From the NCBI GenBank assembly GCA_964480775.1, contig CAYZRF010000003.1, positions 1-32,000 of the forward strand: a DNA stretch of 32,000 bases, read 5' to 3'. Every line of letters begins with the position of its first letter. The stretch's first letter is position 1. Below, in pieces: positions 8,698 to 31,277 of the stretch. This DNA comes from an uncultured Nitrososphaerota archaeon. Its GTDB lineage: Archaea > Korarchaeota > Korarchaeia > Korarchaeales > Korarchaeaceae. Made by a program: the position numbers and the translations under genes. A model generated the notes under the pieces. That model was given only the letters and a program-made list of their open reading frames with translations, had not been told where the DNA came from and did not search any database.

Positions 8698-9387
8698 TCA
8701 GTTTTTTGATCTCGCTGAATTACATAGCGCTTTTATTGGACATTTATAGCATTCAGGCTTTCTGGATTTACAATATGTTCTTCCTAGCTTTATGAAGAGA
8801 AGATGTGCCTTTAGATAGTCTTTAGGCTTGAAAACATTCATTAAACTCTTCCTAACTTTTTCATACCCTCCCTCCTTGGGTGCAAGTCCAATTCTTCTTG
8901 AAACCCTCATGACATGTGTATCCACTGGAATAGTTGGAAATCCAGAAGAAAAAAGAAGAAGGACATCAGCTGTCTTTGGTCCAATCCCAGGGATTGATGT
9001 TAATTCTCTTCTGGCGGCATCTAAGGATTTTTCTAGGATCTTACTTAACTTTCCATCATATTTATCCATTATGAAGGATGATACCTTCTTAATCGTCTTT
9101 GCCTTCTGAGCCTGCAAGCCAGCGGGCTTTATGGCATCCATTAGCTCTTTAACACTTACCTTGGAAAGAGTCTCTGGTCTAACATCAAACCTAGATTCTA
9201 AGCGACTTAAAGCTGCCTTGGAATTCCTATCATTCGTATTTTGTGAAAGTATAGTAGCTATCAATATCTTAAATGGGTCCCCAGATCTCTTAGCAATTAA
9301 GGCCACAAACTCCTTATGTTCCAAGTAGAATTCTTTTTCGAGAATCTTTAGAATTTCTTGGGCTTTAATTCTGCTTTCACGAGACAT
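8698..9387 (-). CDS. nth: Endonuclease III (HhH-GPD DNA glycosylase/AP lyase)
   Basis: LSQNTND, the helix-hairpin-helix GIGPKTADVLL, VDTHV, and a C-terminal 4Fe-4S loop C-x6-C-x2-C-x5-C (CKSRKPECYKCPIKALC). Confidence 0.9.
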   Translation of the reverse strand: MSRESRIKAQEILKILEKEFYLEHKEFVALIAKRSGDPFKILIATILSQNTNDRNSKAALSRLESRFDVRPETLSKVSVKELMDAIKPAGLQAQKAKTIKKVSSFIMDKYDGKLSKILEKSLDAARRELTSIPGIGPKTADVLLLFSSGFPTIPVDTHVMRVSRRIGLAPKEGGYEKVRKSLMNVFKPKDYLKAHLLFIKLGRTYCKSRKPECYKCPIKALCNSARSKN

Positions 9388-9593
9388 CGAACATTACCCC
9401 AGTCTAAATTACCAAAATAATCTTCGAAGTCACTTTAGTGCTTCCTGAAAACTTAGAATATTTTATTAACCAATCCCGCTTTTTACGTCTGGATGGCGTT
9501 TAAAAAGTTCCCTTTTAGTGTGCTCAGTTTCTTAATGGTAAAAAGTTCTTCTCAACTAAAGATCGTAGCTAAATCATCGGCGAGGTATGGCGA

Positions 9594-12500
9594 ATGAGGA
9601 TAAACAAAAACATAGTAGTGATTGCATTCTCTTTAATTTTCCTCGTCTCACTGATCGCTTTTCCAGTTTTATATTTCAAGTATTATATCCCCCTGTTAGA
9701 CAAGATATACGACTTAGAAAGAAACCTTCTTGTCCTGGATGGGGGAGTAAAATACAAAGATTATACTCTATTATTTTGGAAGTTTAGAATACCTTATTCT
9801 GATGGTCTGTTTTACAGAAACATAATAGTAAGCTTTTACGGAACAATATTCAACGCGTTAAAGTCAATTCCTCTTGATCCAGGGATAGTAATCTTTGGAG
9901 CATTTTTGTTGAGAACGAAAAGCTTCCTATTAGCCGCTTTATCTTTAATCGTATGGGCAATCTTTAGCCATTATGGTCTCCTGAGATTAAGAGACAAATT
10001 AGCTAATAGGGGCAGAGGGAACATAGCAACAATTTTAGACCTACTAATTTGGAGGTATTCGCTTATCTGGTTTGGCATTATGGTAGTGTACAACACACTT
10101 AAGAGAAAGCCCAAAGAAAAGTGGGATATAAGATCGTGGCACGCTCCTCCTTTGTTCTATTACTCCTTGGTTTTCGCAATACTCTTCTTTTCTTTACTAA
10201 GGGGGGCAGTGGGTGTTATTTCAGCGGCTTCAGCCACACCTCCAGGGCAATTACCCAATCTGGAAGAGGGGATGTTCTTATACGCGTATTCACATGGATA
10301 TGACTTTAACTTCACTATGGACACAGCTAAGAAACTATACGTCATGCATTTGACAAACTTTGACGAATACCATAGGCTGGGATATGTCGCTGGAATAATA
10401 AAAGGAGCCATACCCTTTCTGTCTCTCGCGTACCCTGCATTGAGCGGATTGTTTTGGAGAATAATAGGAACGTTTTTCTTATGGCTTGCCTTTCTAGCTG
10501 TTCTTCCTGGACCCAGAGAAATAAATAGCTTAAAGCGATACAGGCTGGGACCTAGGCTTGCGGCTTTTGCTGTTTTAATTCAAGGCTTTAGAACCCTGAG
10601 GTTGTATTGGGGCCTGGTATTCTCTAACATGCTTGTTGGATATGGTCCCAACAGCCTCGATTTGGCTGAGACATTTGTAACACCGATTTGGAACCAATTT
10701 AAACTAAAGATCAATTGGTTTTGGTGGCTTGCAGCAATTATTATGGTGATCTACGTTGCTTTGCCACAAAGAGTGGACCTTGCAATATTCCAGAAGTTAT
10801 TTCCACTTAGTTCATGGCTAAAGAGAAGGCTTGGCAAGGAGGATTTCAAACAAATAGCCTCTTCAATATCTGAGGCTACTGTCGCCCTTGCTTTGCTGGT
10901 GCTGATGATAGCTCTAATTTCTGGTTACACGAACTTTTTCTTCAAACCAAATGTGGTCACGCCCGTTCAAGAGGATCTACAGGCCCACCCTCAGAGACTC
11001 AAGCCACTTTGGGATGTAATAAGAGACGTAAACAGATTCGTCTATGATCTGGAGAGCATAGAGTACTCTTGGGTATCAACTGAGTTCGAAAATCCTAGTA
11101 CAGAATGGATAGATTCTAACAAGTATTTGTTTGATGTAATGAGGGTGATAGACAAGGAAAGAGCATATCTTATATCGCGAAAAGAGATTGGACAAAGACC
11201 TTATGTGGTAATTCCCGATCCAGACAACCCATATACAATGAGAGAAGCAGATGCTGATTTCATAGTACTCAACATAGGAGGCAAAGAGGTTCCTCTATGG
11301 GTTGTAGAAGTTCCATTGAAGTACGGGTCTCCAGTGACCGATGATTTCTTCAGAATGAGGCAGTATTATACGCATAGCGATGTAGGATTTGTAACGATAG
11401 TGGCTGGAGAAGAAAATGTTACTGAAGCTGTGCAGGTTTTCAAGGAAAAGAGAATGTATTTTGGTGCCTCTAGAGCTTATGATGAGATAAAATGGGTGTG
11501 TAAAGTCAAAGGAGAGGAGATCTCTGAGGTTGGAAACGTATCTTACGATGGAAAAGGGATTGTTTGGATTTCAGCCCCTAAAATCTACTTTTTCGACCAT
11601 AGATATGCTGACATACTACTTGATTCAGGTCCAAGAGCCCTCCGAAAAACTAACTCAGTATTCTATTGGAGATTCAAAGGATATGAAAGGAAAAACCTGA
11701 CAATAGGGCTTATCCTTTACCGATCACTGCCCGAGAGATTCAACTATTACCTCATGCCTCTGGACAAGACGAACTACGATGAGTATCCTCTGCCTTTTGA
11801 TAATAGAACTGTGTATCTCATGTGGGGAGCCAAGTTTTTCAGCACGAGGAACATCCCCTTTGCAATAGAATGGAAAGTTCCAGAAGATGTGGCTCCCCTA
11901 ATTGATTATCCTGAACAAAGAGGAGGTGGCAGACTCGTTGCTTTGGCGCTTGGAGACATATACGACGGAAAAGTTGATATTTACCTTCCATTCAACGACT
12001 TCTTGAGCAATTACTTCAGGGCAGTTTATGGAGATCTAGTAAAAGCAGACTTTCCTGAAGAGCTGAAAAAGGGAGGCTTGAGGTATCCAGAAAAATACTT
12101 TCTTTACAGGCAGTATTTCGATTGGTACCTGCATGTTGAGGACGTTTCAACCTTTAGGAGTGGTGAAGACTTCTTCAGGCTCCATACCGCACCAGAAGGT
12201 CCAATTACCGAGCTTAGATATGTGATATATCCTGAAGGGTTTGTGGGCATATATCCAGTTGGAGTCATGGGAGCAAAAGGCCCAAACATAGGAGCTCTTT
12301 ACGTGGTTAACAACGAGTTTGAAAACTTTGGAAATGTCAGATGCTATAGATTTCCGATTAAAGACTCTCCGTTTCTGTTCTTTTCTCCGAGCAAGGCAAA
12401 GAGCAATATCTTGTCTTTACCAGAAATAGAGCAATACATCAGACTCAAGAACCCAATAATAGGGCAGATCATCCTTTACAAGTTGAATGGAGGTTACTGG

Positions 12501-12839
12501 ATGTACGTCCTTCCCTTTTACAGAGTTGGTGCGGGGGGTGTTGTACAAATAGTTAGAGTCTCGGTCCTCTTCGCACACTATCCTGTTGGAAGAGAAGTCG
12601 AATTTTATGTTGGTTGGGGTGAAAACATAGAAGAAGCTGTACTTACAGCATCGGCAAGGATGATGGGGATAGAAATGCCCGAAAACATTACGGAAATCGT
12701 GGACATAAAAGCTTTGGTGGAGGAGTTCTATAAGTATAAGGAGCAGGGTGACTTTATCAACGCCTGGAAGGTTGCTGAGAAGATAATGGAAATCCTAAGA
12801 GAGGCTGAGAGCGTGGAAATCAGAGGAAGGGGTGGGTAA
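9594..12839 (+). CDS. UPF0182 (COG1615)-like large membrane protein
   Basis: 1081 aa. The N-terminal third is polytopic. The C-terminal region follows the UPF0182 pattern as I remember it: YPEKYFLYRQYFDWYLHVEDVSTFRSGEDFF (compare YPEDLF..Q....YHVTDP..FY..D.W), then ..YRFP.., then IILYKLNGGYWMYVLPFY....VVQIVRVSV. Confidence 0.6.
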   Translation: MRINKNIVVIAFSLIFLVSLIAFPVLYFKYYIPLLDKIYDLERNLLVLDGGVKYKDYTLLFWKFRIPYSDGLFYRNIIVSFYGTIFNALKSIPLDPGIVIFGAFLLRTKSFLLAALSLIVWAIFSHYGLLRLRDKLANRGRGNIATILDLLIWRYSLIWFGIMVVYNTLKRKPKEKWDIRSWHAPPLFYYSLVFAILFFSLLRGAVGVISAASATPPGQLPNLEEGMFLYAYSHGYDFNFTMDTAKKLYVMHLTNFDEYHRLGYVAGIIKGAIPFLSLAYPALSGLFWRIIGTFFLWLAFLAVLPGPREINSLKRYRLGPRLAAFAVLIQGFRTLRLYWGLVFSNMLVGYGPNSLDLAETFVTPIWNQFKLKINWFWWLAAIIMVIYVALPQRVDLAIFQKLFPLSSWLKRRLGKEDFKQIASSISEATVALALLVLMIALISGYTNFFFKPNVVTPVQEDLQAHPQRLKPLWDVIRDVNRFVYDLESIEYSWVSTEFENPSTEWIDSNKYLFDVMRVIDKERAYLISRKEIGQRPYVVIPDPDNPYTMREADADFIVLNIGGKEVPLWVVEVPLKYGSPVTDDFFRMRQYYTHSDVGFVTIVAGEENVTEAVQVFKEKRMYFGASRAYDEIKWVCKVKGEEISEVGNVSYDGKGIVWISAPKIYFFDHRYADILLDSGPRALRKTNSVFYWRFKGYERKNLTIGLILYRSLPERFNYYLMPLDKTNYDEYPLPFDNRTVYLMWGAKFFSTRNIPFAIEWKVPEDVAPLIDYPEQRGGGRLVALALGDIYDGKVDIYLPFNDFLSNYFRAVYGDLVKADFPEELKKGGLRYPEKYFLYRQYFDWYLHVEDVSTFRSGEDFFRLHTAPEGPITELRYVIYPEGFVGIYPVGVMGAKGPNIGALYVVNNEFENFGNVRCYRFPIKDSPFLFFSPSKAKSNILSLPEIEQYIRLKNPIIGQIILYKLNGGYWMYVLPFYRVGAGGVVQIVRVSVLFAHYPVGREVEFYVGWGENIEEAVLTASARMMGIEMPENITEIVDIKALVEEFYKYKEQGDFINAWKVAEKIMEILREAESVEIRGRGG

Positions 12840-23711: not shown

Positions 23712-24230
23712 CTATTCAAGGGTAGCGTGCCTTCTAGCGAGATCTTCCTCCGTCTTTCCTAATCTTGAGGCCAACTCAGAGATCAAAGCATCGCAAAATA
23801 CAAGAGTAGAGATCTCAAATAGTGTGCCTAGAGGGGTTAGTGGTTCATGAAGTCCCATGATTTGTCTTGATTCGTAATCCATATGGGTGGCTGGCAGAAC
23901 CCTTCCCTTTATAACAACAGAAACATCTGCCATCCTTCCCAATGTAGAATCTGGGTAGCTTGTTATAACTGCAAGAATACCACCTATCTCTTTGACCTGT
24001 TTTGCTATCGTTACAGGATAAAGAGTCTCTCCAGATCCACTTATAACTATCAAGAGATCCCCTGGATCCATTCTAGGGGTTATGGTCTCTCCAACTACAT
24101 GAACTGAAAAGCCAAGGTGCATTAACCTCATAGCGAAGGCCTTTGCAACAAGTCCAGATCTCCCAGCACCTACGATGAAGATCTTGCGGTCTCCTAGCGT
24201 TCTGAGAACTGCCGATGCCAAGAGCTCCAC
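23712..24230 (-). CDS. hxlB: 6-phospho-3-hexuloisomerase (SIS domain)
   Basis: KIFIVGAGRSGLVAKAFAMRLMHLGF, VGETITP, LLIVISGSGET and C-terminal RRHATLE closely parallel archaeal PHI (for example the M. jannaschii enzyme, from memory). The conserved N-terminal helix continues in frame to 24314 without a canonical start (see findings). Confidence 0.88.
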   Translation of the reverse strand: MELLASAVLRTLGDRKIFIVGAGRSGLVAKAFAMRLMHLGFSVHVVGETITPRMDPGDLLIVISGSGETLYPVTIAKQVKEIGGILAVITSYPDSTLGRMADVSVVIKGRVLPATHMDYESRQIMGLHEPLTPLGTLFEISTLVFCDALISELASRLGKTEEDLARRHATLE

Positions 24231-24397
24231 TTCTGACTCATTAATGTCAGAAAGAACGTTTGCTACAGCTTTAACTATCTTCTGAGCTCTGTCTCTGACC
24301 TCCAGAAGTATCCCCTAGAACCATGAGTGCCTAATAATATTATTTTTACACAAGATTTTATTGTTTAGTTGATAACAGAACATTTGTAGGACTGAAA

Positions 24398-25774
24398 TCA
24401 GCCCTCGATTATGAAGGCTGATGAAGTAACATAACCCATCCTCCCAGCATGTTTCGGCCATACCGCTACAAATATACCTATGAATTCTCCCTCTTTAGAT
24501 TCAATGCTTGCTGTGTAATTCTGTCCATTTTCTGTCATCATTAAAGAGTTCCAACTCACTTGAGTGAAGTCCTTAGTATCGCTGTACGCATACCAAAGCT
24601 CAATTCTATCTATGGCCGCCCCGTTATCATTGACCTTAACTGAAAAATCTATATTTTCGTTCGAACTAAACATATCGATGCTAATAACGTTGGGAATTGG
24701 TGTTTCGAGGACTATATTCTTTAAAAACATCCTCCAGGCAATTTCTGCCTCTATAGAAGAGTGAAGAGAGGTATGGGTTGCGCTCGGCACATATGCTATG
24801 TAAAGATTTCCCGAATACGCTTCTTGATACGTTCTTTCTATACCTAAAGGGTTTAAAACATCATTTGAGCCTAATAGTAGCATTACTTTGAGATCCTTTC
24901 TCTTCATAACGGTTATTGGATCATAATACTTTGCAAAGTCATCCCAGAGAGGTGTATCAATCTTTTCAGTGAGACCAGACTTAGAGAGAGATTCCAAAAC
25001 CCCTCTCAATTCACCATATACCTCAAGATGGGTGTTCATCAGAGCTTTAAGGTCAAAACCTGCGAAAGATCTCGGAGCTATGGCAACAATTCTTGGGTCT
25101 GCAGCGGCAGCTATACAACTAGCCCAGCCCCTTTTGCTCCCGCCCGATAGAATGAACTTTGTTGGATGAGAACTCAGAAGGTTGTTTAATAGCGTGGCAG
25201 CTCTCATGTAAGCGGCGGCCATAGGATAGGGTAGAGGCCATTTAATGTCGCCAGTCTCAAAATATTTCTCTAAGGAGAACGCTAAGAGTTCTTCTTCATC
25301 ATTTATTCCGAACTGGGGCATAAATGGTACATCTGTAACGACAAAAACTGGTATTCTAGCCTCAGCAGCAGCTTTCAATCCGAATTCTTCTAGAAAAGAC
25401 TCAGGTTTCTCGCCCATACCTCCAAAAACTATTGCCGCATATTCACTTGCTGCACCTACTGGCTGAAAGATAACCCCCCTGTGATACCATTTGTTTCCCA
25501 TCCAATCTATGCTATGGAAGGATAGGACAGTGACGTTAATAAGAACACCTCCGCTCCTTTGCTCCTCTTGTGTTGCAAAATGTAGCTCTAAGGTTTCAGG
25601 ATCGAATATTTTCTCTGCATCGAATATATCTAGATTTAAACTCAGATTTCCCATGATGGGTTTGGTTGTTCCCGTTGTCTCTTCACTTTCTTTTCTTATC
25701 TGAAAATACGCTAAAGCCAAAAGCGTAAAGATCAATAAGAGTAAAAGTGCAATAGTTGTTCTTTGCTTCATCAT
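24398..25774 (-). CDS. Secreted alpha/beta hydrolase of the PhoPQ-activated pathogenicity-related (PqaA) type
   Basis: N-terminal signal anchor (TIALLLLLIFTLLALAYF). LSGGSKRGWASCIAAAADPRIVAIAPRSF matches the G-x-S-K-R-G-W..D.R..a..P core I associate with this family. 458 aa. Confidence 0.5.
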   Translation of the reverse strand: MMKQRTTIALLLLLIFTLLALAYFQIRKESEETTGTTKPIMGNLSLNLDIFDAEKIFDPETLELHFATQEEQRSGGVLINVTVLSFHSIDWMGNKWYHRGVIFQPVGAASEYAAIVFGGMGEKPESFLEEFGLKAAAEARIPVFVVTDVPFMPQFGINDEEELLAFSLEKYFETGDIKWPLPYPMAAAYMRAATLLNNLLSSHPTKFILSGGSKRGWASCIAAAADPRIVAIAPRSFAGFDLKALMNTHLEVYGELRGVLESLSKSGLTEKIDTPLWDDFAKYYDPITVMKRKDLKVMLLLGSNDVLNPLGIERTYQEAYSGNLYIAYVPSATHTSLHSSIEAEIAWRMFLKNIVLETPIPNVISIDMFSSNENIDFSVKVNDNGAAIDRIELWYAYSDTKDFTQVSWNSLMMTENGQNYTASIESKEGEFIGIFVAVWPKHAGRMGYVTSSAFIIEG

Positions 25775-25864: not shown

Positions 25865-26179
25865 ATGCTTCGAATACATTTGGCAAGGAAGAAAGACTTC
25901 GTTAGAATCATAAGAGAATGCCTTTTGGAGACTAGAGGGAAAGTAATACTTTTTTGGAAGGAAAAAATCGAAGAAGAAAGTGAAGGAAGGAGAACAATTC
26001 TTCTCCTAGTTCCCATTTATTACCCAAACGTTGGAGAGTGGATTCTCTGGTGCTATAATCAAAAACTTGAGGAAGAAAGTCCTGAAGAAATAGCTAAGGT
26101 CTTAGCAAAAGAGATAGGAATAACGCATACAGCAGAGATAGTGAAGATATCTGCTAACGGAGAAGAAGTAGATGCTTAG
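25865..26179 (+). CDS. Hypothetical protein (104 aa)
   Basis: ATG-started ORF, Glu-rich, with no motif I recognise. Its TAG (26177-26179) overlaps the TAA (26176-26178, minus strand) of the GTPase gene. Confidence 0.4.
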   Translation: MLRIHLARKKDFVRIIRECLLETRGKVILFWKEKIEEESEGRRTILLLVPIYYPNVGEWILWCYNQKLEEESPEEIAKVLAKEIGITHTAEIVKISANGEEVDA

Positions 26180-26883
26180 AGAAGTTTTTCTTTTTTCAGA
26201 ATTGTTTTAACAAGCTTTCTAACTGCTTCATTTATGTTTTTTCCAGTAAGTGCGCTGGTATTAAGATAACCAACGAAACCAAACTCTTGAACATACTTCA
26301 TAGGATTTCCAGAGATTTTTACACCTAAATCGCTTTTTGTCCCTATAAGAAGCATAGGAACCTCGCCGAGATTATCTCTAACCTCTTTTACCCATCCTGG
26401 GACATCTCGAAAGCTTTTATCGTCCACTAGACTGAATGCCACAAAGCCACCAGCACTTCCTCTGTAAAAGTTCGGTCTCATAAGGCCAAACCTTTCCTGA
26501 CCAGCTAGATCCCAAATCACCAATCTAATCAGATATCTTTCAATAAAATGGTGTTTTGAGTAGAAATCCACACCTATAGTGGTCTTATAGCTCTTATCAA
26601 AACTTCCCAAGGCAAATCTTCTACAAAATGATGTTTTACCCACTCTTGGGTTGCCACACACAAAAAGCTTGATAGGTATCGTTCCTTTGAGGAGATTTAC
26701 CTCCCCTAAGATCTCTATGACTCTATCATGCCCGAAGGCACTAAGGGCTTTTTCATATAGGGACGTAAGAACGAAATCATCTAACTCTACGTCATCTCCT
26801 AAACTCATTTCAAAAATCCAATTATCTAATTGCTCCCCAAAGTAACTTTTAAGCAATTCTTTGTATTCAGCCAGCTTCGGCAA
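26176..26883 (-). CDS. Rab-like Ras-superfamily small GTPase with a ~70-aa N-terminal extension
   Basis: G1 GNPRVGKT (aa 77-84), switch I YKTTIGVDF, G3 WDLAGQERF, G4 GTKSD, G5 TSAL. Rab-family-like strings are IGVDF, RLVIWD and FYRGSAGG. There is no C-terminal Cys (it ends KKEKLL). TTG start lies 9 nt after AAGGAGGT. Confidence 0.85.
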   Translation of the reverse strand: MPKLAEYKELLKSYFGEQLDNWIFEMSLGDDVELDDFVLTSLYEKALSAFGHDRVIEILGEVNLLKGTIPIKLFVCGNPRVGKTSFCRRFALGSFDKSYKTTIGVDFYSKHHFIERYLIRLVIWDLAGQERFGLMRPNFYRGSAGGFVAFSLVDDKSFRDVPGWVKEVRDNLGEVPMLLIGTKSDLGVKISGNPMKYVQEFGFVGYLNTSALTGKNINEAVRKLVKTILKKEKLL

Positions 26884-27619
26884 GCTCTATAACCTCCTTG
26901 AGCCCTCTCACCTTCTTAAAATAAAAGAATGCCAAGAAAGTGAGAAAAATGAAGGAAAAGGAGGCTATCACCTCTTCAAATGGCTTAAGGACGGTGAACA
27001 GAGTATAGGTCTTCTCGCCGTATCTTATAAAGTCAGAAATCATTGAAGGAAGGGCAGCAATCTGAATAGAGGCTAAAACATCGTTTGGAAGGCCTCTTGG
27101 GAATAGAAGAACGCTAATACTAGCGAGAAAGAAGCAGATCAAATCAAAGGCAACATAACTCAATAGAATTGGAGACTGCTGGGCTAAGTACAGCATGAAA
27201 AGGGGCAGAAAAACAAGGACGATCTTGACAGATTTTCTTCCAGTAGCTGCAAACCATCTGACGGAAATCATCTTTGATATCCCATATAAGAGGCTCATGT
27301 ATCCTATCAAGTTAGCTAATGCTGAAATTTGATACAATCTAAAGTTTGGAGAAAGAAAGTAAAGAAGCTTTTGGGCAACTCCAGAGAACAAGACAAATAT
27401 CGCAATGGAAAGCGACATCACCCTAGCAGTTGATCCACTTGAGTGTAAAGTAGCAGTTAAGAGCCATAAAATCGCACCAATTGTGGACAGTGCTATGAAC
27501 AAAACAACTTGAATGATCTTTGATCCTTTTATAAGGAGAAAAAATTGGACCCCAGAGAAGGAAAAGGAAAAAAGACCGAGGAGGAAAATCTCACTGAAGG
27601 ATAGCGAAGGTCGCTCCAA
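26867..27619 (-). CDS. Polytopic membrane protein (about 8 TM), unknown family, middle gene of the GTPase operon
   Basis: 250 aa with eight hydrophobic segments. TTG start is preceded by GGTGGTG. The 3' end overlaps the GTPase start by 17 nt. Confidence 0.7.
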   Translation of the reverse strand: MERPSLSFSEIFLLGLFSFSFSGVQFFLLIKGSKIIQVVLFIALSTIGAILWLLTATLHSSGSTARVMSLSIAIFVLFSGVAQKLLYFLSPNFRLYQISALANLIGYMSLLYGISKMISVRWFAATGRKSVKIVLVFLPLFMLYLAQQSPILLSYVAFDLICFFLASISVLLFPRGLPNDVLASIQIAALPSMISDFIRYGEKTYTLFTVLKPFEEVIASFSFIFLTFLAFFYFKKVRGLKEVIELAEAG

Positions 27620-27629
27620 GGGGCACCAC

Positions 27630-28544
27630 CTACATCAGCTCTTTTACGGTTTGCCTTAACTTCCTTAAAGCCATTTCAAGGGTGTAACCCTGTCTCCTAA
27701 GGGCATCTATATCCTTTTGAAGACTCTTCACGGGTTCAGAGTAAAGCAGAGAATATACCCTAAGAAGAGCTCTATACTCGGGCTCTATAGAGCTTGGAAC
27801 ATAAGATATAGCGTCGGTTGCAGATCTAAGTTCACCTAGAGTCCTTAAACGCTCAATCTTTTGAATTACAGACTGTATATCGACTCCTTCCTCTTTAATG
27901 CCGAGGAAAACGATACCCTCGGATCCTATTGGAGCTAAAATAACTGGTCCCAAAGCACTTTTAATCTTCATAATGGCTCCGCTTTCTGCCATTGAGTTGA
28001 CTTTATCTCCAAATTTATCTTTGAGATCCTCACAGAACTTGATAATGTTCTTAGATGGCATGTTGCCTTTTGTGTGCCACCTATTCTCCCTCTCATCATA
28101 GAAACCGACAAAAGTAACTCCAGAGATCTTCGCTAAATCTAATCTAGCAAACTCTCCTAATCCAACAGTACCTAATACGATCTTATCTACCTCTTGTTGA
28201 AACTCTTTGGATGTCTCGGCACTAAGAGACTGTGGTCCCTCTCCAAACTTTCTCTGGAAAACCGTGGCTAGCTCTTCACTAACTTTTTCTGCAAGAGCCG
28301 GATCGAGCTCTCTTTCAGCATAAATAACGAACAGAAAATCGCCAGAATTATAAAACGATATAAAATCCTTACCTACAGAAAAATAGCCAGAACTAGTCTT
28401 TCCAATTTCCTCTACAAGTGGCATTATCATGCTTAGAATGCCCGCCGTTGCTGTCATCTGAGAATTTGTGAATGAGCCGTAGTTACGTCGAAATAGCACT
28501 ACGCCAGCATTTCTATCGATCACAAGAATGTCATGAACTGGCAA
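27630..28544 (-). CDS. Putative GTPase regulator: longin-like N-domain + Roadblock/LC7-like domain + helical tail
   Basis: Topology read from hydrophobic periodicity only. Residues 1-100 read as beta-beta-alpha-beta-beta-beta-alpha (ILVIDRNAGVVLFRRNY / ATAGILSMIMPLVEEIG / YFSVGKDFISFYNSGDFLFVIYA / PALAEKVSEELATVFQRKF). Residues 113-232 read as alpha-beta-beta-alpha-beta-beta-beta-alpha (KEFQQEVDKIVLG / FARLDLA..VTFVGFYD / SKNIIKFCEDLKDKFGDKV / AIMKIKS, PVILAPIG, GIVFLGIKE / IQSVIQKIERL). Residues 233-304 are helical. TTG start. Confidence 0.45.
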   Translation of the reverse strand: MPVHDILVIDRNAGVVLFRRNYGSFTNSQMTATAGILSMIMPLVEEIGKTSSGYFSVGKDFISFYNSGDFLFVIYAERELDPALAEKVSEELATVFQRKFGEGPQSLSAETSKEFQQEVDKIVLGTVGLGEFARLDLAKISGVTFVGFYDERENRWHTKGNMPSKNIIKFCEDLKDKFGDKVNSMAESGAIMKIKSALGPVILAPIGSEGIVFLGIKEEGVDIQSVIQKIERLRTLGELRSATDAISYVPSSIEPEYRALLRVYSLLYSEPVKSLQKDIDALRRQGYTLEMALRKLRQTVKELM

Positions 28545-28572: not shown

Positions 28573-28581
28573 TAATTTAAT
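28573..28581 (-). promoter_or_regulatory. TATA-like box (ATTAAATTA on the minus strand) upstream of the GTPase operon
   Basis: It lies 28 nt upstream of TTG 28544, and no SD sits in between. This is consistent with a short-leader or leaderless archaeal transcript. A pattern match only. Confidence 0.25.
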
Positions 28582-28931
28582 TCTTTTGTTGGATTGGAAG
28601 TACAGCTTAATCACTTTAATCCAGTTTTGTTAATATATTTTTTCAAACAGAAAAAATTACTTTTTAGAAATCTTTTTCATAGTAGAGTCCCGAATGAAAA
28701 TAGGGGAAACGCTACACCTGGTTTTACTTGTTGGGTTCAACTTCGCTGCCAGCTTAAAAGATTTTAATTTTTAATTCACATTTAGTTCAAATAGAAAAAA
28801 CATTTATGTTCACTAACTGAGCAATGCCTTTTAATTCGAAGGCGAGCAACGCTAAGGGTTTTCTTCATCAAGTAATAAATTAGATATTTACCTGAGATGT
28901 TTATTTTCTATGTCCTGGTGTTGAACAATGT

Positions 28932-29330
28932 ATGCCTGAAAAAACTCTAAGAACGGGAATTAAGAAAGAGATTAGAGTTATGATAAGAGAAGAACATTCT
29001 GCGAAGTCTGTCGGTAGTGGAGATGTAAAAGTTCTTTCAACGCCATCTATGATAGCCTTTATTGAGGCAGTATCAAGGGATCTCGTCCAACCATATCTTC
29101 CGGACGGCTACACTACCGTTGGAACCCATGTTGATGTAAGACATCTTGCCCCAGCTCCCATAGGAAGAGAGATAGATGTAAAATCAGAGCTAATATCCAT
29201 AGATGGAAGGAAACTTACTTTCAAAGTCGAAGTGTTTTGGAATGAGAAAATTATAGGTGAGGGAAAACACGAACGGTATATAGTTAACTTAGAGCGCTTC
29301 TTAGACAAAATAAGAAAGAATATCACTTAA
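28932..29330 (+). CDS. Hotdog-fold thioesterase (COG5496 / FlK-like)
   Basis: HSAKSVGSGDVKVLSTPSMIAFIEAVS matches the h-tA..lGSG.l.VlaTP.mia.mE pattern of this family. 132 aa. Confidence 0.7.
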   Translation: MPEKTLRTGIKKEIRVMIREEHSAKSVGSGDVKVLSTPSMIAFIEAVSRDLVQPYLPDGYTTVGTHVDVRHLAPAPIGREIDVKSELISIDGRKLTFKVEVFWNEKIIGEGKHERYIVNLERFLDKIRKNIT

Positions 29331-30651
29331 ATAGAATCCATCTAAATCTTCTTACAGCAAGTATTATTGTTAAGAATAAGAAAGGAGTTAAAAGGAACAA
29401 CAATAAGAGAAACTGTCTCTGTTCCAAGCTCATTTCTATTTCCATAGCCATGGACAGAGCTTTTTGACTATGAATATAAGCACTAGAAAAGCTACCTTGA
29501 TCTAATTCCCTCAATGATTCTTCTATAAGATCTCTAATTTCCTTTAGATATGTGCTATTCTGAGCTTTATTCACCTGGAAAAGGATTTTCTCAACTCTAT
29601 TGATTGAAGAAAGTGTTTTTTGGGCTTCAGGTATTGGAGCCCAGACTGCTTTGGCTCTTAATACAACTCCTTTAACTTTAGGATCTAAAGTCGGCAAATA
29701 ACTCCAACCTAAATATCTAGAGCTACCTCCTCTTCTCACAAAAGCAAAAGAAGTGTCTCTTAGTGAAAATAGAAACTCTCTTGTGTTATACCCCTCATCA
29801 TAAGTTACGTCGACTGGAAGCCATCCATAGTTTGGGATGTAGACCTCTACCCACCTGTGGAACATGTAATCAATAATTTCCGTTGTAAGCATATTTCCAG
29901 CTAGGCTTGGATCTATTACAGTTCCACCAGCAAACCTTGAAGGAACCCCGGCTGCTCTACATAGAGAAATATAAACAAAAGTGTATTCGGAGCAGGACCC
30001 CTCTCCTCTCCTTAGAGTGGTTGGGGCATCATCCCATCTCGAGTCCAGTTTATAGCTGAGTCTCTCTATAACATAATCATGAAGACGCACTACAATGTTA
30101 TATGCACTTTTTGTGTCTCCAATAGCTTCATCAATACAAGAAATGACTATAGGATCTTGAATTTTGTACATTTCTTCGTCTCTAGTGTAGAGCACTCTTA
30201 TTTGTTCTGGAATTTCACTTAAAGACCCAATTTTTTCGGGATCTACGCTGTACTCGATTGAAACAAGCCTTGCTACGCAAGACATACTTATCTCTTGGAT
30301 CTCACCCTCTTTCATAGAGGAAATTTTGAACATTGCAATGCTTTGATTCCACTCATCCTGTAGTATTTCATCTGGATCTCTACTAAAACTTAGAGAAATC
30401 ACTTTCTGATTGTCTGCATCGAATGGTATCGGGAAATATACATCAAATGCTTCAGATATGTCTCTATCGCTGAAAATGTAAATGAACAAGGTAATGTTAA
30501 CATATCTAGTGTTGTTATTCATAGTTTGCACGTTTTTGTTAAAGGATTGCAGGTAAGAGCCTATCAAAATTAGAATGATAACAATAGCAAAGCTTACAGA
30601 AATCGCTGATTTTTTGCCCTCGATAATCTTTAGCATCCTTGATGTAATCAT
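29323..30651 (-). CDS. Transglutaminase-like cysteine protease-fold protein, bitopic (N- and C-terminal TM)
   Basis: Cys-His-Asp core: GEGSCSEYTFVYISLCRAAGVPSRFAGG, FHRWVEVY, GWLPVDVT. TM helices lie at both ends. The stop overlaps the thioesterase gene by 8 nt. Confidence 0.8.
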   Translation of the reverse strand: MITSRMLKIIEGKKSAISVSFAIVIILILIGSYLQSFNKNVQTMNNNTRYVNITLFIYIFSDRDISEAFDVYFPIPFDADNQKVISLSFSRDPDEILQDEWNQSIAMFKISSMKEGEIQEISMSCVARLVSIEYSVDPEKIGSLSEIPEQIRVLYTRDEEMYKIQDPIVISCIDEAIGDTKSAYNIVVRLHDYVIERLSYKLDSRWDDAPTTLRRGEGSCSEYTFVYISLCRAAGVPSRFAGGTVIDPSLAGNMLTTEIIDYMFHRWVEVYIPNYGWLPVDVTYDEGYNTREFLFSLRDTSFAFVRRGGSSRYLGWSYLPTLDPKVKGVVLRAKAVWAPIPEAQKTLSSINRVEKILFQVNKAQNSTYLKEIRDLIEESLRELDQGSFSSAYIHSQKALSMAMEIEMSLEQRQFLLLLFLLTPFLFLTIILAVRRFRWILFK

Positions 30652-30731
30652 GGCTTTATCCTTAATACATTTAACACATCCTAATCATTCCTATTTTATT
30701 TATTATTACAAGAAGAGCTTGAAGGTTTGAA

Positions 30732-31277
30732 ATGTCGTTCCGATACGATGATGTGGTTATAGAGGTTCTTGATGGAGACATTACTGAGATGATGGTTGAT
30801 GCCATCGTAAATCCAGCAAACTCTTACCTATTAATGGGGGGTGGTGTTGCTGGAGCTATTAAGAGAAAAGGGGGTGTAGAGATAGAAAAAGAAGCTAGAA
30901 AAATGGCTCCAATAGAGATAGGTCAAGCAATTGTGACACCCGCTGGAAATCTCCCTACTAAATGGATCATACATGCTCCCACGGTTAAACGCCCCGCGGG
31001 AAAAGCATCTTTAGAATCTGTTTCTCTAGCTACAAGAGCAGCCCTAAGAATTGCGGAAAGAATTGGTGCTCGGTCTTTAGCCTTTCCTATAATGGGAACG
31101 GGGGTCGGTGGGCTTTCTATTGCGAAAGCTGCAAAAACCATGCTCAATGAGATAACATCACACATAAACCATGGGACAAACCTTAGAAAAATTGTATTGG
31201 TCGCATGGGGAGAAAAAGCATTTGCAGATCTCTTTTCTGTAGCAAAAGGATTGCTAAAATCTTACGCCACGAAATGA
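30732..31277 (+). CDS. Macro domain protein (ADP-ribose binding/hydrolase, AF1521-like)
   Basis: GDITEMMVDAIVNPANSYLLMGGGVAGAI and FPIMGTGVGGL are canonical macro-domain motifs. 181 aa. Confidence 0.9.
   Translation: MSFRYDDVVIEVLDGDITEMMVDAIVNPANSYLLMGGGVAGAIKRKGGVEIEKEARKMAPIEIGQAIVTPAGNLPTKWIIHAPTVKRPAGKASLESVSLATRAALRIAERIGARSLAFPIMGTGVGGLSIAKAAKTMLNEITSHINHGTNLRKIVLVAWGEKAFADLFSVAKGLLKSYATK

Follow-up and report, generated by a model that had tools for sequence, protein, structure and literature searches.

A korarchaeal gene set encoding a Rab-like small GTPase, a two-domain longin-type protein, and a membrane protein

Introduction

Pairs of small GTPases and longin or roadblock regulators have a central role in the membrane identity of eukaryotes, and in Asgard archaea they are listed with the "eukaryotic signature" proteins. 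Longin and roadblock domains work in pairs arranged side by side, forming a platform with a single-helix face on which the small GTPase sits (Levine et al. 2013, PMC3747258). Such paired platforms are found in MglB-MglA, TRAPP-Ypt1, Mon1-Ccz1-Ypt7, Ragulator-Rag, and SRX-SRbeta (PMC3747258). Cognate pairs cannot be read from Asgard genomes because the GTPases are generally not encoded beside their regulators; in the cultured Asgard archaeon MK-D1, they generally do not share operons with genes for roadblock or longin proteins (PMC10933270). Whether operons would expose the partners and membrane links of archaeal GTPases has been posed as an open question (PMC4917890). Here we describe three adjacent genes, A, B, and C, in a 32,000-nucleotide stretch of DNA (the window; positions 1 to 32,000 of contig CAYZRF010000003.1, GenBank assembly GCA_964480775.1) from an uncultured archaeon of the Korarchaeaceae. 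Their order names a likely cognate set consisting of one GTPase (C), one two-domain longin-type partner (A), and one membrane protein (B), and provides a korarchaeal example of a Rab-like GTPase with a longin partner. On balance, we lean toward the view that the operon encodes a membrane-associated small-GTPase switch, in which A would be the GTPase-binding platform or regulator and B the membrane link or target.

What A-B-C shares with known systems is a small GTPase paired with a longin/roadblock-superfamily partner. MglA-MglB has the same juxtaposition of a small GTPase gene and the gene of a platform partner from this superfamily (PMC4316618, PMC3747258), but C is Rab/Ras-like, carries a canonical DxxGQ motif, and groups with Rab-like proteins. 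Moreover, A is a two-domain protein of 304 amino acids (aa) with no Robl_LC7 match, whereas MglB has about 150 aa and a single roadblock domain, and the korarchaeal operon includes a polytopic membrane protein. The actinobacterial conservon likewise unites a membrane protein, a roadblock-superfamily protein, and a small GTPase in a prokaryotic operon (PMC4316618). However, the conservon is bacterial, its CvnA is a histidine kinase while B has no recognizable domain, and its CvnD belongs to the MglA family; the korarchaeal loci have no equivalent of CvnC (DUF742) and no fourth conserved gene. In an Asgard LAMTOR1-like/Rab-like/DENN operon (Liu et al., bioRxiv 10.1101/2020.10.19.343400), a Rab-like GTPase is combined with candidate regulators of the roadblock/longin superfamily; the operon described here differs in lacking DENN, in having a fused two-domain regulator and a membrane protein, and in its korarchaeal host.

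Three further comparisons can be made. Rag-Ragulator-SLC38A9, to which the preliminary description of the window had pointed, resembles A-B-C by analogy only, as a GTPase with a roadblock platform and a polytopic membrane protein, but C lacks a C-terminal roadblock domain and is not Rag-like, and B had no match to SLC38. Asgard archaea encode longin-GTPase fusions of Rag-like and Arf-like type (PMC10933270), and the longin domain of A is homologous to the N-domain of a fusion of this kind, P0009; in the korarchaeal module, by contrast, longin and GTPase are separate genes and the GTPase is Rab-like, not Arf- or Rag-like. Finally, the tri-longin guanine nucleotide exchange factors (GEFs) of Rabs, namely, Mon1-Ccz1, BLOC-3 (HPS1-HPS4), and CPLANE (Fuzzy-Inturned), have tandem longin-type domains in a chain and a Rab-type partner, and two members of the A family match Fuz_longin_1, the first longin of FUZ/MON1/HPS1, below threshold. 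Unlike these GEFs, A consists of two domains and a three-helix tail rather than three longin domains per subunit, is encoded by one gene rather than as a heterodimer of two paralogous subunits, differs in domain arrangement, and comes from a non-Asgard archaeon.

A preliminary description of the window, made from the sequence alone, knew of no characterized prokaryotic module with this composition. We likewise found none that is the same, but the claim must be tempered by the analogues MglA/MglB, the conservon, and the Asgard operon. The literature searched contained no description of a korarchaeal A-B-C module, and the only work on korarchaeal small GTPases in it concerned an Arf-related gene thought to have been acquired from Asgard archaea.

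Operon structure

The three genes lie in the order A-B-C on one strand (Table 1). A and B are separated by a gap of 10 nucleotides (nt) (27620 to 27629), and B and C overlap by 17 nt (26867 to 26883). The coordinates, strand, lengths, TTG start codons, gap, and overlap given in the preliminary description agreed with our reading base for base, and the Shine-Dalgarno motif it had placed inside the last codons of B was found there. This motif, as (A/G)(A/G)GGAGGT before C, is kept in four related loci (L011, L005, L001, and L013). At the A-B junction, TAGGTG is retained in the window clade, and TAGGAT is found in L009 and L007. The TTG of gene A lies three codons 3' of a stop codon, and no Shine-Dalgarno motif precedes it.

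Conservation upstream of A was assessed in six related loci. The box AAAAGAATTAAATTA is conserved 28 to 36 nt 5' of A in all six, in flanks that have diverged, and the block AAAAG(A/G)ATTAAATT(A/C)CAA is invariant or nearly so across the same loci. The box is a putative promoter composed of elements like the TFB recognition element (BRE) and the TATA box, from which A would be expressed with a very short leader or from a leaderless mRNA. A second conserved block, ACTTCCAATCC (28589 to 28600, minus strand), abuts the promoter-like box in all six aligned loci and may be a regulator binding site.

The TTG starts are not an artifact of open reading frame (ORF) listing, and comparison with relatives supports them. 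Diverged relatives (L009, L007, and L006) have ATG at the aligned first codons of B and C. TTG-CCx stands at the start of A in every clade with a fused A; the standalone longin gene of L015 (see below) starts with ATG. Upstream of the operon lies a divergent FlK-type thioesterase gene (28932 to 29330, plus strand) and downstream a convergent ORF of 104 aa, gene D (25865 to 26179, plus strand). The transcription unit would therefore consist of just A, B, and C.

Patterns of substitution indicate that A, B, and C are real genes under purifying selection. The proportion of nonsynonymous differences (pN) was far below that of synonymous ones (pS) for all three genes in every pair compared (window versus L005 or L001), and the ratio of nonsynonymous to synonymous rates (dN/dS) between the window and L005 was 0.03 for A and 0.08 for B. 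Gene arrangement, spacing, and translation signals together point to one translationally coupled operon of a Guaymas-type korarchaeon.

The GTPase

By its sequence, C is a complete Ras-superfamily GTPase, closest to Rabs by its best matches. It matched Pfam Ras over residues 72 to 229 with an E value of 2.2e-37 (128.6 bits versus a cutoff of 21.6) and TIGR00231 of NCBIfam with 56.8 bits (cutoff, 42.5). The Ras superfamily is recognized by G1 GxxxxGK[ST], a switch I threonine, G3 DxxG, G4 [NT]KxD, and G5 SA[KL]. C has all of them, as G1 GNPRVGKT, switch I TIGVDF, G3 WDLAGQE, G4 GTKSD, and G5 TSAL; the complete G1-to-G5 set reported in the preliminary description (with G5 as TSA) was thus recovered. 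With its canonical P-loop, switch I threonine, and DxxGQ, C is predicted to be competent for hydrolysis.

The Rab-like character that had been assigned to C was upheld by a PDB sequence search, in which the best 60 of 696 matches (E ≤ 1e-10) were all Rabs, including Rab6, 38, 29, 32, 43, 23, and 1, Sec4, others, and a "Thorarchaeota Rab." In a rough blastp comparison of C with human GTPases, to be taken as a lead only, the score was highest for Rab1A (94.7 bits), followed by Rab5A, Rab7A, Ran, HRas, RhoA, and Arf1 (31.2 bits). The RabF1 to RabF5 motifs that Pereira-Leal and Seabra reportedly defined in 2000 are IGVDF, KLQIW, RFRSIT, YYRGA, and LVYDIT. Against these motifs, C has an exact IGVDF, similar strings in RLVIW and FYRGS, and poor ones in RFGLMR and VAFSLV. 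A phylogenetic study by Vargova et al. found no archaeal sequences that are specifically sister to Rabs (bioRxiv 10.1101/2024.02.28.582541).

The G domain of C is preceded by an N-terminal extension of about 68 aa, presumably helical, which is kept in all module-linked GTPases and missing from stand-alone korarchaeal paralogues such as P0021 and P0027. The extension had no family match. At its other end, C of the window terminates in KKEKLL and carries no C-terminal cysteine/prenylation or lipid-anchor motif. A 316-aa neighbor of a stand-alone korarchaeal GTPase (L018) was considered as a possible relative of A and rejected, being unrelated to A.

The longin-type protein

An initial AlphaFold2 model of A, built from five close sequences, was discarded as too poor (mean predicted local distance difference test [pLDDT] score, 63). 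The final model, from a 9-sequence alignment that included clades only 30% identical, had a pLDDT of 81 and a predicted template modeling score (pTM) of 0.73, which suggests that the two domains hold a defined mutual arrangement. DSSP assigned the following strands (E) and helices (H) to residues 1 to 127 of the model: E3-10, E15-21, H28-47, E52-57, E60-67, E70-77, H82-100, and H109-127. This order, beta-beta-alpha-beta-beta-beta-alpha-alpha, is the five-stranded longin arrangement, and the modeled N-domain thus has longin topology.

Domain 2 was assigned H129-137, E143-150, E155-158, H164-188, E192-196, E199-206, E210-216, and H223-243. The circularly permuted order of roadblock domains is alpha-beta-beta-alpha-beta-beta-beta, with or without a final alpha. 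Domain 2 would have this order with helix 129-137 counted as part of the fold, whereas counting helix 251-267 would make it longin-like. Because the order of elements fits both permutations and there is no sequence signal, we call this domain longin/roadblock-type. None of the 9 A members matched Robl_LC7 of Pfam at E values up to 5, and a profile of domain 2 matched no roadblock protein in the PDB. The succession of a longin and a Roadblock module that had been read from the sequence therefore holds in the model for the longin part, whereas the second part lacks a Roadblock sequence signal and could equally be a longin by its order. The tail of three helices contains the invariant residues Y257, L261, Y264, Y268, D278, G286, and K295. 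An internal duplication within A was rejected, the N- and C-domains aligning in hhalign with a probability of 24%.

Modeling of the 304-aa protein, which the preliminary description had suggested as a check, thus gave a longin N-domain and a longin/roadblock-type domain, and Foldseek searches of the PDB with the model returned longin and roadblock proteins. The top matches were Mon1 and Ccz1 chains (E values of 2e-6 to 3e-5), with BLOC-3 (HPS1/HPS4) and CPLANE (Fuzzy/Inturned) in the next ranks; tri-longin matches spanned 2e-6 to 1e-4 overall. Single longin domains were also matched, among them Sec22b with a template modeling score (TM-score) of 0.74 to 0.75 (normalized to target length) and a root mean square deviation (rmsd) of 3.1 to 3.4 Å, as well as VAMP7, AP sigma, and zeta-COP. 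LAMTOR roadblock chains gave E values of 5e-4 to 8e-4 (5x6u_B, TM-score of 0.61).

Sequence comparisons pointed to longins as well. The Pfam Longin model matched 6 of the 9 A members below threshold (E value of 0.011 for A of the window), and Fuz_longin_1 did so for P0005 (0.014) and for the standalone longin of L015 (0.0015, over almost the whole model). Neither Longin (PF13774) nor Fuz_longin_1 (PF19036) reached its gathering score, the best values being 16.1 versus 26.2 bits (window A) and 19.1 versus 26.1 bits (L015 longin). When a profile of the N-domain was searched against the PDB, the four best matches were all VAMP7 longin domains (E values of 0.013 to 0.02); a full-length A profile found nothing meaningful among PDB sequences. 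By hhalign, the N-domain aligned with the L015 standalone longin (probability of 95%; E value of 1.7e-8) and with the longin-like N-domain of the longin-Arf-like fusion P0009 (probability of 96.5%). Two long repeat proteins matched by the A profile, P0007 and P0008, were dismissed as spurious, since they are MBG-repeat surface proteins.

Outside the A family, the N-domain of A had one detectable relative, P0009 (L019, 2522 to 3418), in which a longin-like domain is joined to an Arf-like GTPase. The P0009 gene is convergent with that of a second Arf-like GTPase (L019, 3526 to 4080) on a 4.1-kb metagenome contig.

The membrane protein

The hydropathy profile of B has six strong and two weak hydrophobic segments. 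The eight or so transmembrane segments ascribed to it earlier are thus plausible, though the number could be anywhere from 6 to 8. B had no match in Pfam, NCBIfam, PADLOC, or the PDB, and profile and PDB searches revealed no kinase or other domain and no resemblance to transporter families, SLC38 included. Its homologue in L009 is 27% identical (E value of 3e-14).

Distribution of the module

The A family is very small. A word-indexed search recovered 8 clusters from among 5.8 billion protein clusters, and when 1.84 billion representatives were scanned exhaustively with HMMER, the result was three full-length A clusters (50% identity) and one weak match to the N-domain of P0009. Where source names were given, they were Candidatus Korarchaeota or Thermoproteota metagenome-assembled genomes (MAGs), mostly from Guaymas Basin, the exception being L014, "Nitrososphaerota." A of the window and A of MAG B15_G15 (L011) share 94% identity. 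Scans of genomes and metagenome contigs for the module recovered only the same clades.

Within the window clade, where A is 71 to 94% identical, A-B-C is present with an identical 17-nt overlap. The order A-B-C is kept in L009 and L010, where A is only 30% identical. In L006, a higher-GC relative whose A is 37% identical, A and C are about 480 nt apart (spacer, 8943 to 9434). In the third clade (L015 and L016; Korarchaeota RLG36753.1 and MDK2464844.1), C is 41% identical and retains the N-extension, a 138-aa standalone homologue of the longin domain of A overlaps the start of the GTPase, and two small transmembrane proteins of 73 and 121 aa precede the standalone longin gene. Four clades, with A as little as 30% identical, have the longin and GTPase genes linked; two of them contain B, one has small transmembrane proteins in its place, and B is missing from one. 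No locus had more than one gene of the tandem-longin type in the operon or its flanks. Nothing else belongs to the module, since flanking genes differ among clades.

The conserved core is thus the longin protein together with the N-extended Rab-like GTPase, mostly, though not in every clade, accompanied by a membrane protein. The co-location of all three genes in related genomes, on which the preliminary description had staked its reading, holds in relatives down to 30% identity of A, with the qualification that B is not universal (absent from L006 and replaced in L015/L016).

Only the third-clade GTPases (L015, 6001 to 6717; P0022, P0024, P0025, P0048, and P0050) end in ACVNI, which is CaaX-like. 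This clade has no B-type membrane protein.

Three assemblies (L007, L008, and L014) have the A-B-C arrangement with a deletion of about 480 nt, which removed the C terminus of B, the spacer, and the start codon and N-extension of C. In L007 (9380 to 9700), the deletion fuses a truncated B (217 aa) to the G domain of the GTPase. The GTPase frame, offset by +1 from that of B, still contains the P-loop codons KLFISGNGGVGKT, and no ATG, GTG, or TTG occurs in it before the Met at 9570. The same state is shared by all three assemblies, with one mismatch each over 1,080 nt. The locus is either a decaying module or one with an unusual route of expression.

Two other identities were considered for the module. 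It was rejected as a defense system, none of A, B, C, and the 104-aa protein D having a match in PADLOC, and as a mobile element, A having no tblastn match in plasmids or phages.

Table 1. Positions of the genes and features discussed (window coordinates)
Feature	Position	Strand	Description
Gene A	27630..28544	-	304 aa; cytosolic two-domain longin + longin/roadblock-type protein with helical tail; TTG start
Gene B	26867..27619	-	250 aa; polytopic membrane protein, 6-8 hydrophobic segments, orphan family; TTG start
Gene C	26176..26883	-	235 aa; Ras-superfamily (Rab-like) small GTPase; TTG start
A, longin-topology domain	28164..28544	-	Residues 1-127; DSSP of AlphaFold2 model
A, second alpha/beta sandwich domain	27816..28160	-	Residues 129-243; DSSP of AlphaFold2 model
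A, C-terminal tail, three conserved helices	27636..27794	-	Residues 251-303; alignment and model
C, acidic N-terminal extension	26680..26883	-	Residues 1-68; alignment of module GTPases
C, G1/P-loop GNPRVGKT	26632..26655	-	Residues 77-84
C, G3/switch II WDLAGQE	26494..26514	-	Residues 124-130; includes catalytic glutamine
Promoter-like element AAAAGAATTAAATTA	28573..28588	-	Purine-rich BRE-like CAAAAGAA followed by TATA-like TTAAATTA; 28 nt 5' of TTG of A
TAGGTGGTG	27624..27632	-	Stop codon of A merged with Shine-Dalgarno-like motif; 4 nt 5' of TTG of B
AAGGAGGT	26892..26899	-	Shine-Dalgarno motif for C within final codons of B; 8 nt 5' of TTG of C

Proposed mechanism and alternatives

As a membrane-associated switch, the operon would work as follows. 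With two longin/roadblock-type domains in a single chain, A would form a dimeric-type platform for C; the single-domain longin of the third clade could homodimerize to reach the same state. A would bind C directly and set or read its nucleotide state. B would hold the complex at the cytoplasmic membrane or would itself be the element that the switch controls. Because C has no lipid anchor, B is the obvious means of membrane association. Fusion ("Rosetta stone") support for the partnership comes from P0009, where the longin subfamily of A is joined to an Arf-like GTPase.

Several observations weigh against this proposal. The Mon1-Ccz1-type matches of A have low global TM-scores (0.25 to 0.29) and may arise simply because the PDB has no other tandem longin chains; phytochrome PAS-GAF-PHY chains appear in the same range of Foldseek E values, and the alignment behind the model comprises only 9 sequences. 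The spacer between A and C in L006 contains no ORF for B and no tblastn trace of it, and the 73- and 121-aa transmembrane proteins of the third clade are dissimilar to B. With B absent from one clade and nonhomologous in another, it may be an accessory. Finally, A is intact in the three assemblies with a damaged C (dN/dS of 0.07 versus L009), so that A may have a role independent of C, unless the loss of C there is recent.

A might instead be an MglB- or folliculin-like GTPase-activating protein (GAP) or GAP cofactor, in which case the operon would encode an MglA/MglB-type switch for polarity or positioning, adapted to a Rab-like GTPase. Prokaryotic roadblock proteins adjoining small GTPases are typically MglB-type GAPs (PMC4316618, PMC3747258), and C retains its catalytic glutamine, so stimulation by a GAP would be possible. 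In addition, R19 and R20, at the end of beta2 of A, are invariant in 9 of the 9 fused members. However, this pair is A-K in the third-clade standalone longin, and R19 is Q in P0009. C is also not MglA-like, having the canonical DxxGQ in G3. Longin GAPs (FLCN, NPRL2, and SMCR8/C9orf72) are marked by a GP motif in the loop before beta2, beside the arginine finger (PMC12290439). This motif is absent from A, whose loop reads D-R-N-A-G-V, without a proline; across the extended family, G14 of the loop is invariant, and A13 varies (S or T). Since the best full-length structural matches of A are subunits of Rab GEFs and the GP motif is missing, a role as exchange factor or platform is somewhat more likely than that of a folliculin-type GAP. 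We regard a GAP function as unlikely but credible.

A second alternative concerns B, which could be a passenger gene with no functional tie, the working unit being the longin protein and the GTPase only. Its absence from L006 (where the 480-nt spacer has neither an ORF for it nor a tblastn signal) and its replacement in L015/L016 by two unrelated transmembrane proteins (73 and 121 aa) are what one would expect of such a gene. Set against this, B of the window clade sits between A and C with signals of translational coupling on both sides, keeps its position where A is only 30% identical, and is under purifying selection. Membrane proteins again stand directly upstream in the third clade, and C of the window clade lacks a lipid anchor. 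Passenger status for B is accordingly a doubtful option, though one to be kept in mind.

The membrane-associated switch can also be put in a stronger form, with A as a minimal two-domain prokaryotic relative of the tri-longin Rab GEFs that activates C at a dedicated polytopic receptor. We think this form rather unlikely. If true, it would mean that the logic of Rab, longin GEF, and membrane receptor exists in operon form outside Asgard archaea, with an origin that is either ancestral or due to an old transfer.

It is improbable, to our minds, that A is instead an effector or adaptor, like the SRX domain of SR-alpha on SR-beta-GTP, recruited by GTP-bound C without changing its nucleotide state while B serves as the true regulator or anchor. 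Longin and roadblock domains that bind GTPases with no GEF or GAP activity do exist, for example, SRX and the C-terminal domains of Rags (PMC3747258), and the extra three-helix tail of A could engage another partner; nothing specific counts against the idea.

Very improbable is a tandem PAS/GAF-like small-molecule sensor whose likeness to longin/roadblock domains is merely that of a generic alpha/beta sandwich: phytochrome PAS-GAF-PHY chains are among the Foldseek matches (E values of 3e-5 to 1e-3), and longins are regarded as members of the PAS/GAF superfamily (PMC4917890), but the phytochrome matches have TM-scores of about 0.17 (normalized to target length) versus 0.6 to 0.75 (rmsd of 3 to 4 Å) for single longins, the one long helix between beta2 and beta3 and the two C-terminal helices are those of a longin and not of PAS, the sequence-level hints all point to longins, and four clades show genetic linkage of A with a GTPase.

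The rarity of the family limits the general importance of the A-B-C module. Because the hosts are thermophiles (hot-vent Korarchaeota), the proteins should be stable, and with a fixed gene set, the binding, GEF or GAP activity, and membrane recruitment expected of a membrane-associated switch are directly testable.

Neighboring genes

Gene D runs toward C, and the two share 4 nt at the stop codon of C. The window clade (L001, L005, and L011) retains D under purifying selection, and the product of D had no family match. We rejected D as a part of the module, since it was not found beside the module in other clades. No Rfam family and no tRNA were detected anywhere in the window.

The genes on either side of the operon (28932 to 31277 and 23712 to 25774) encode the FlK-type thioesterase, a transglutaminase-core membrane protein, and macro-domain, PhoPQ-activated-pathogenicity-related, and SIS-domain proteins. 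At its 3' end, the transglutaminase-core gene shares 8 nt with the thioesterase gene. Among the clades, only that of the window has the thioesterase and SIS genes next to the module. Some 4.4 kb 5' of the third-clade module, L015 (940 to 1602) encodes a 220-aa protein with a weak match to bactofilin (E value of 8e-5, below the cutoff). Elsewhere in the window, a 1,081-aa ORF (9594 to 12839, plus strand) has as its sole match a weak one to UPF0182 over its C-terminal part (E value of 1.2e-7).

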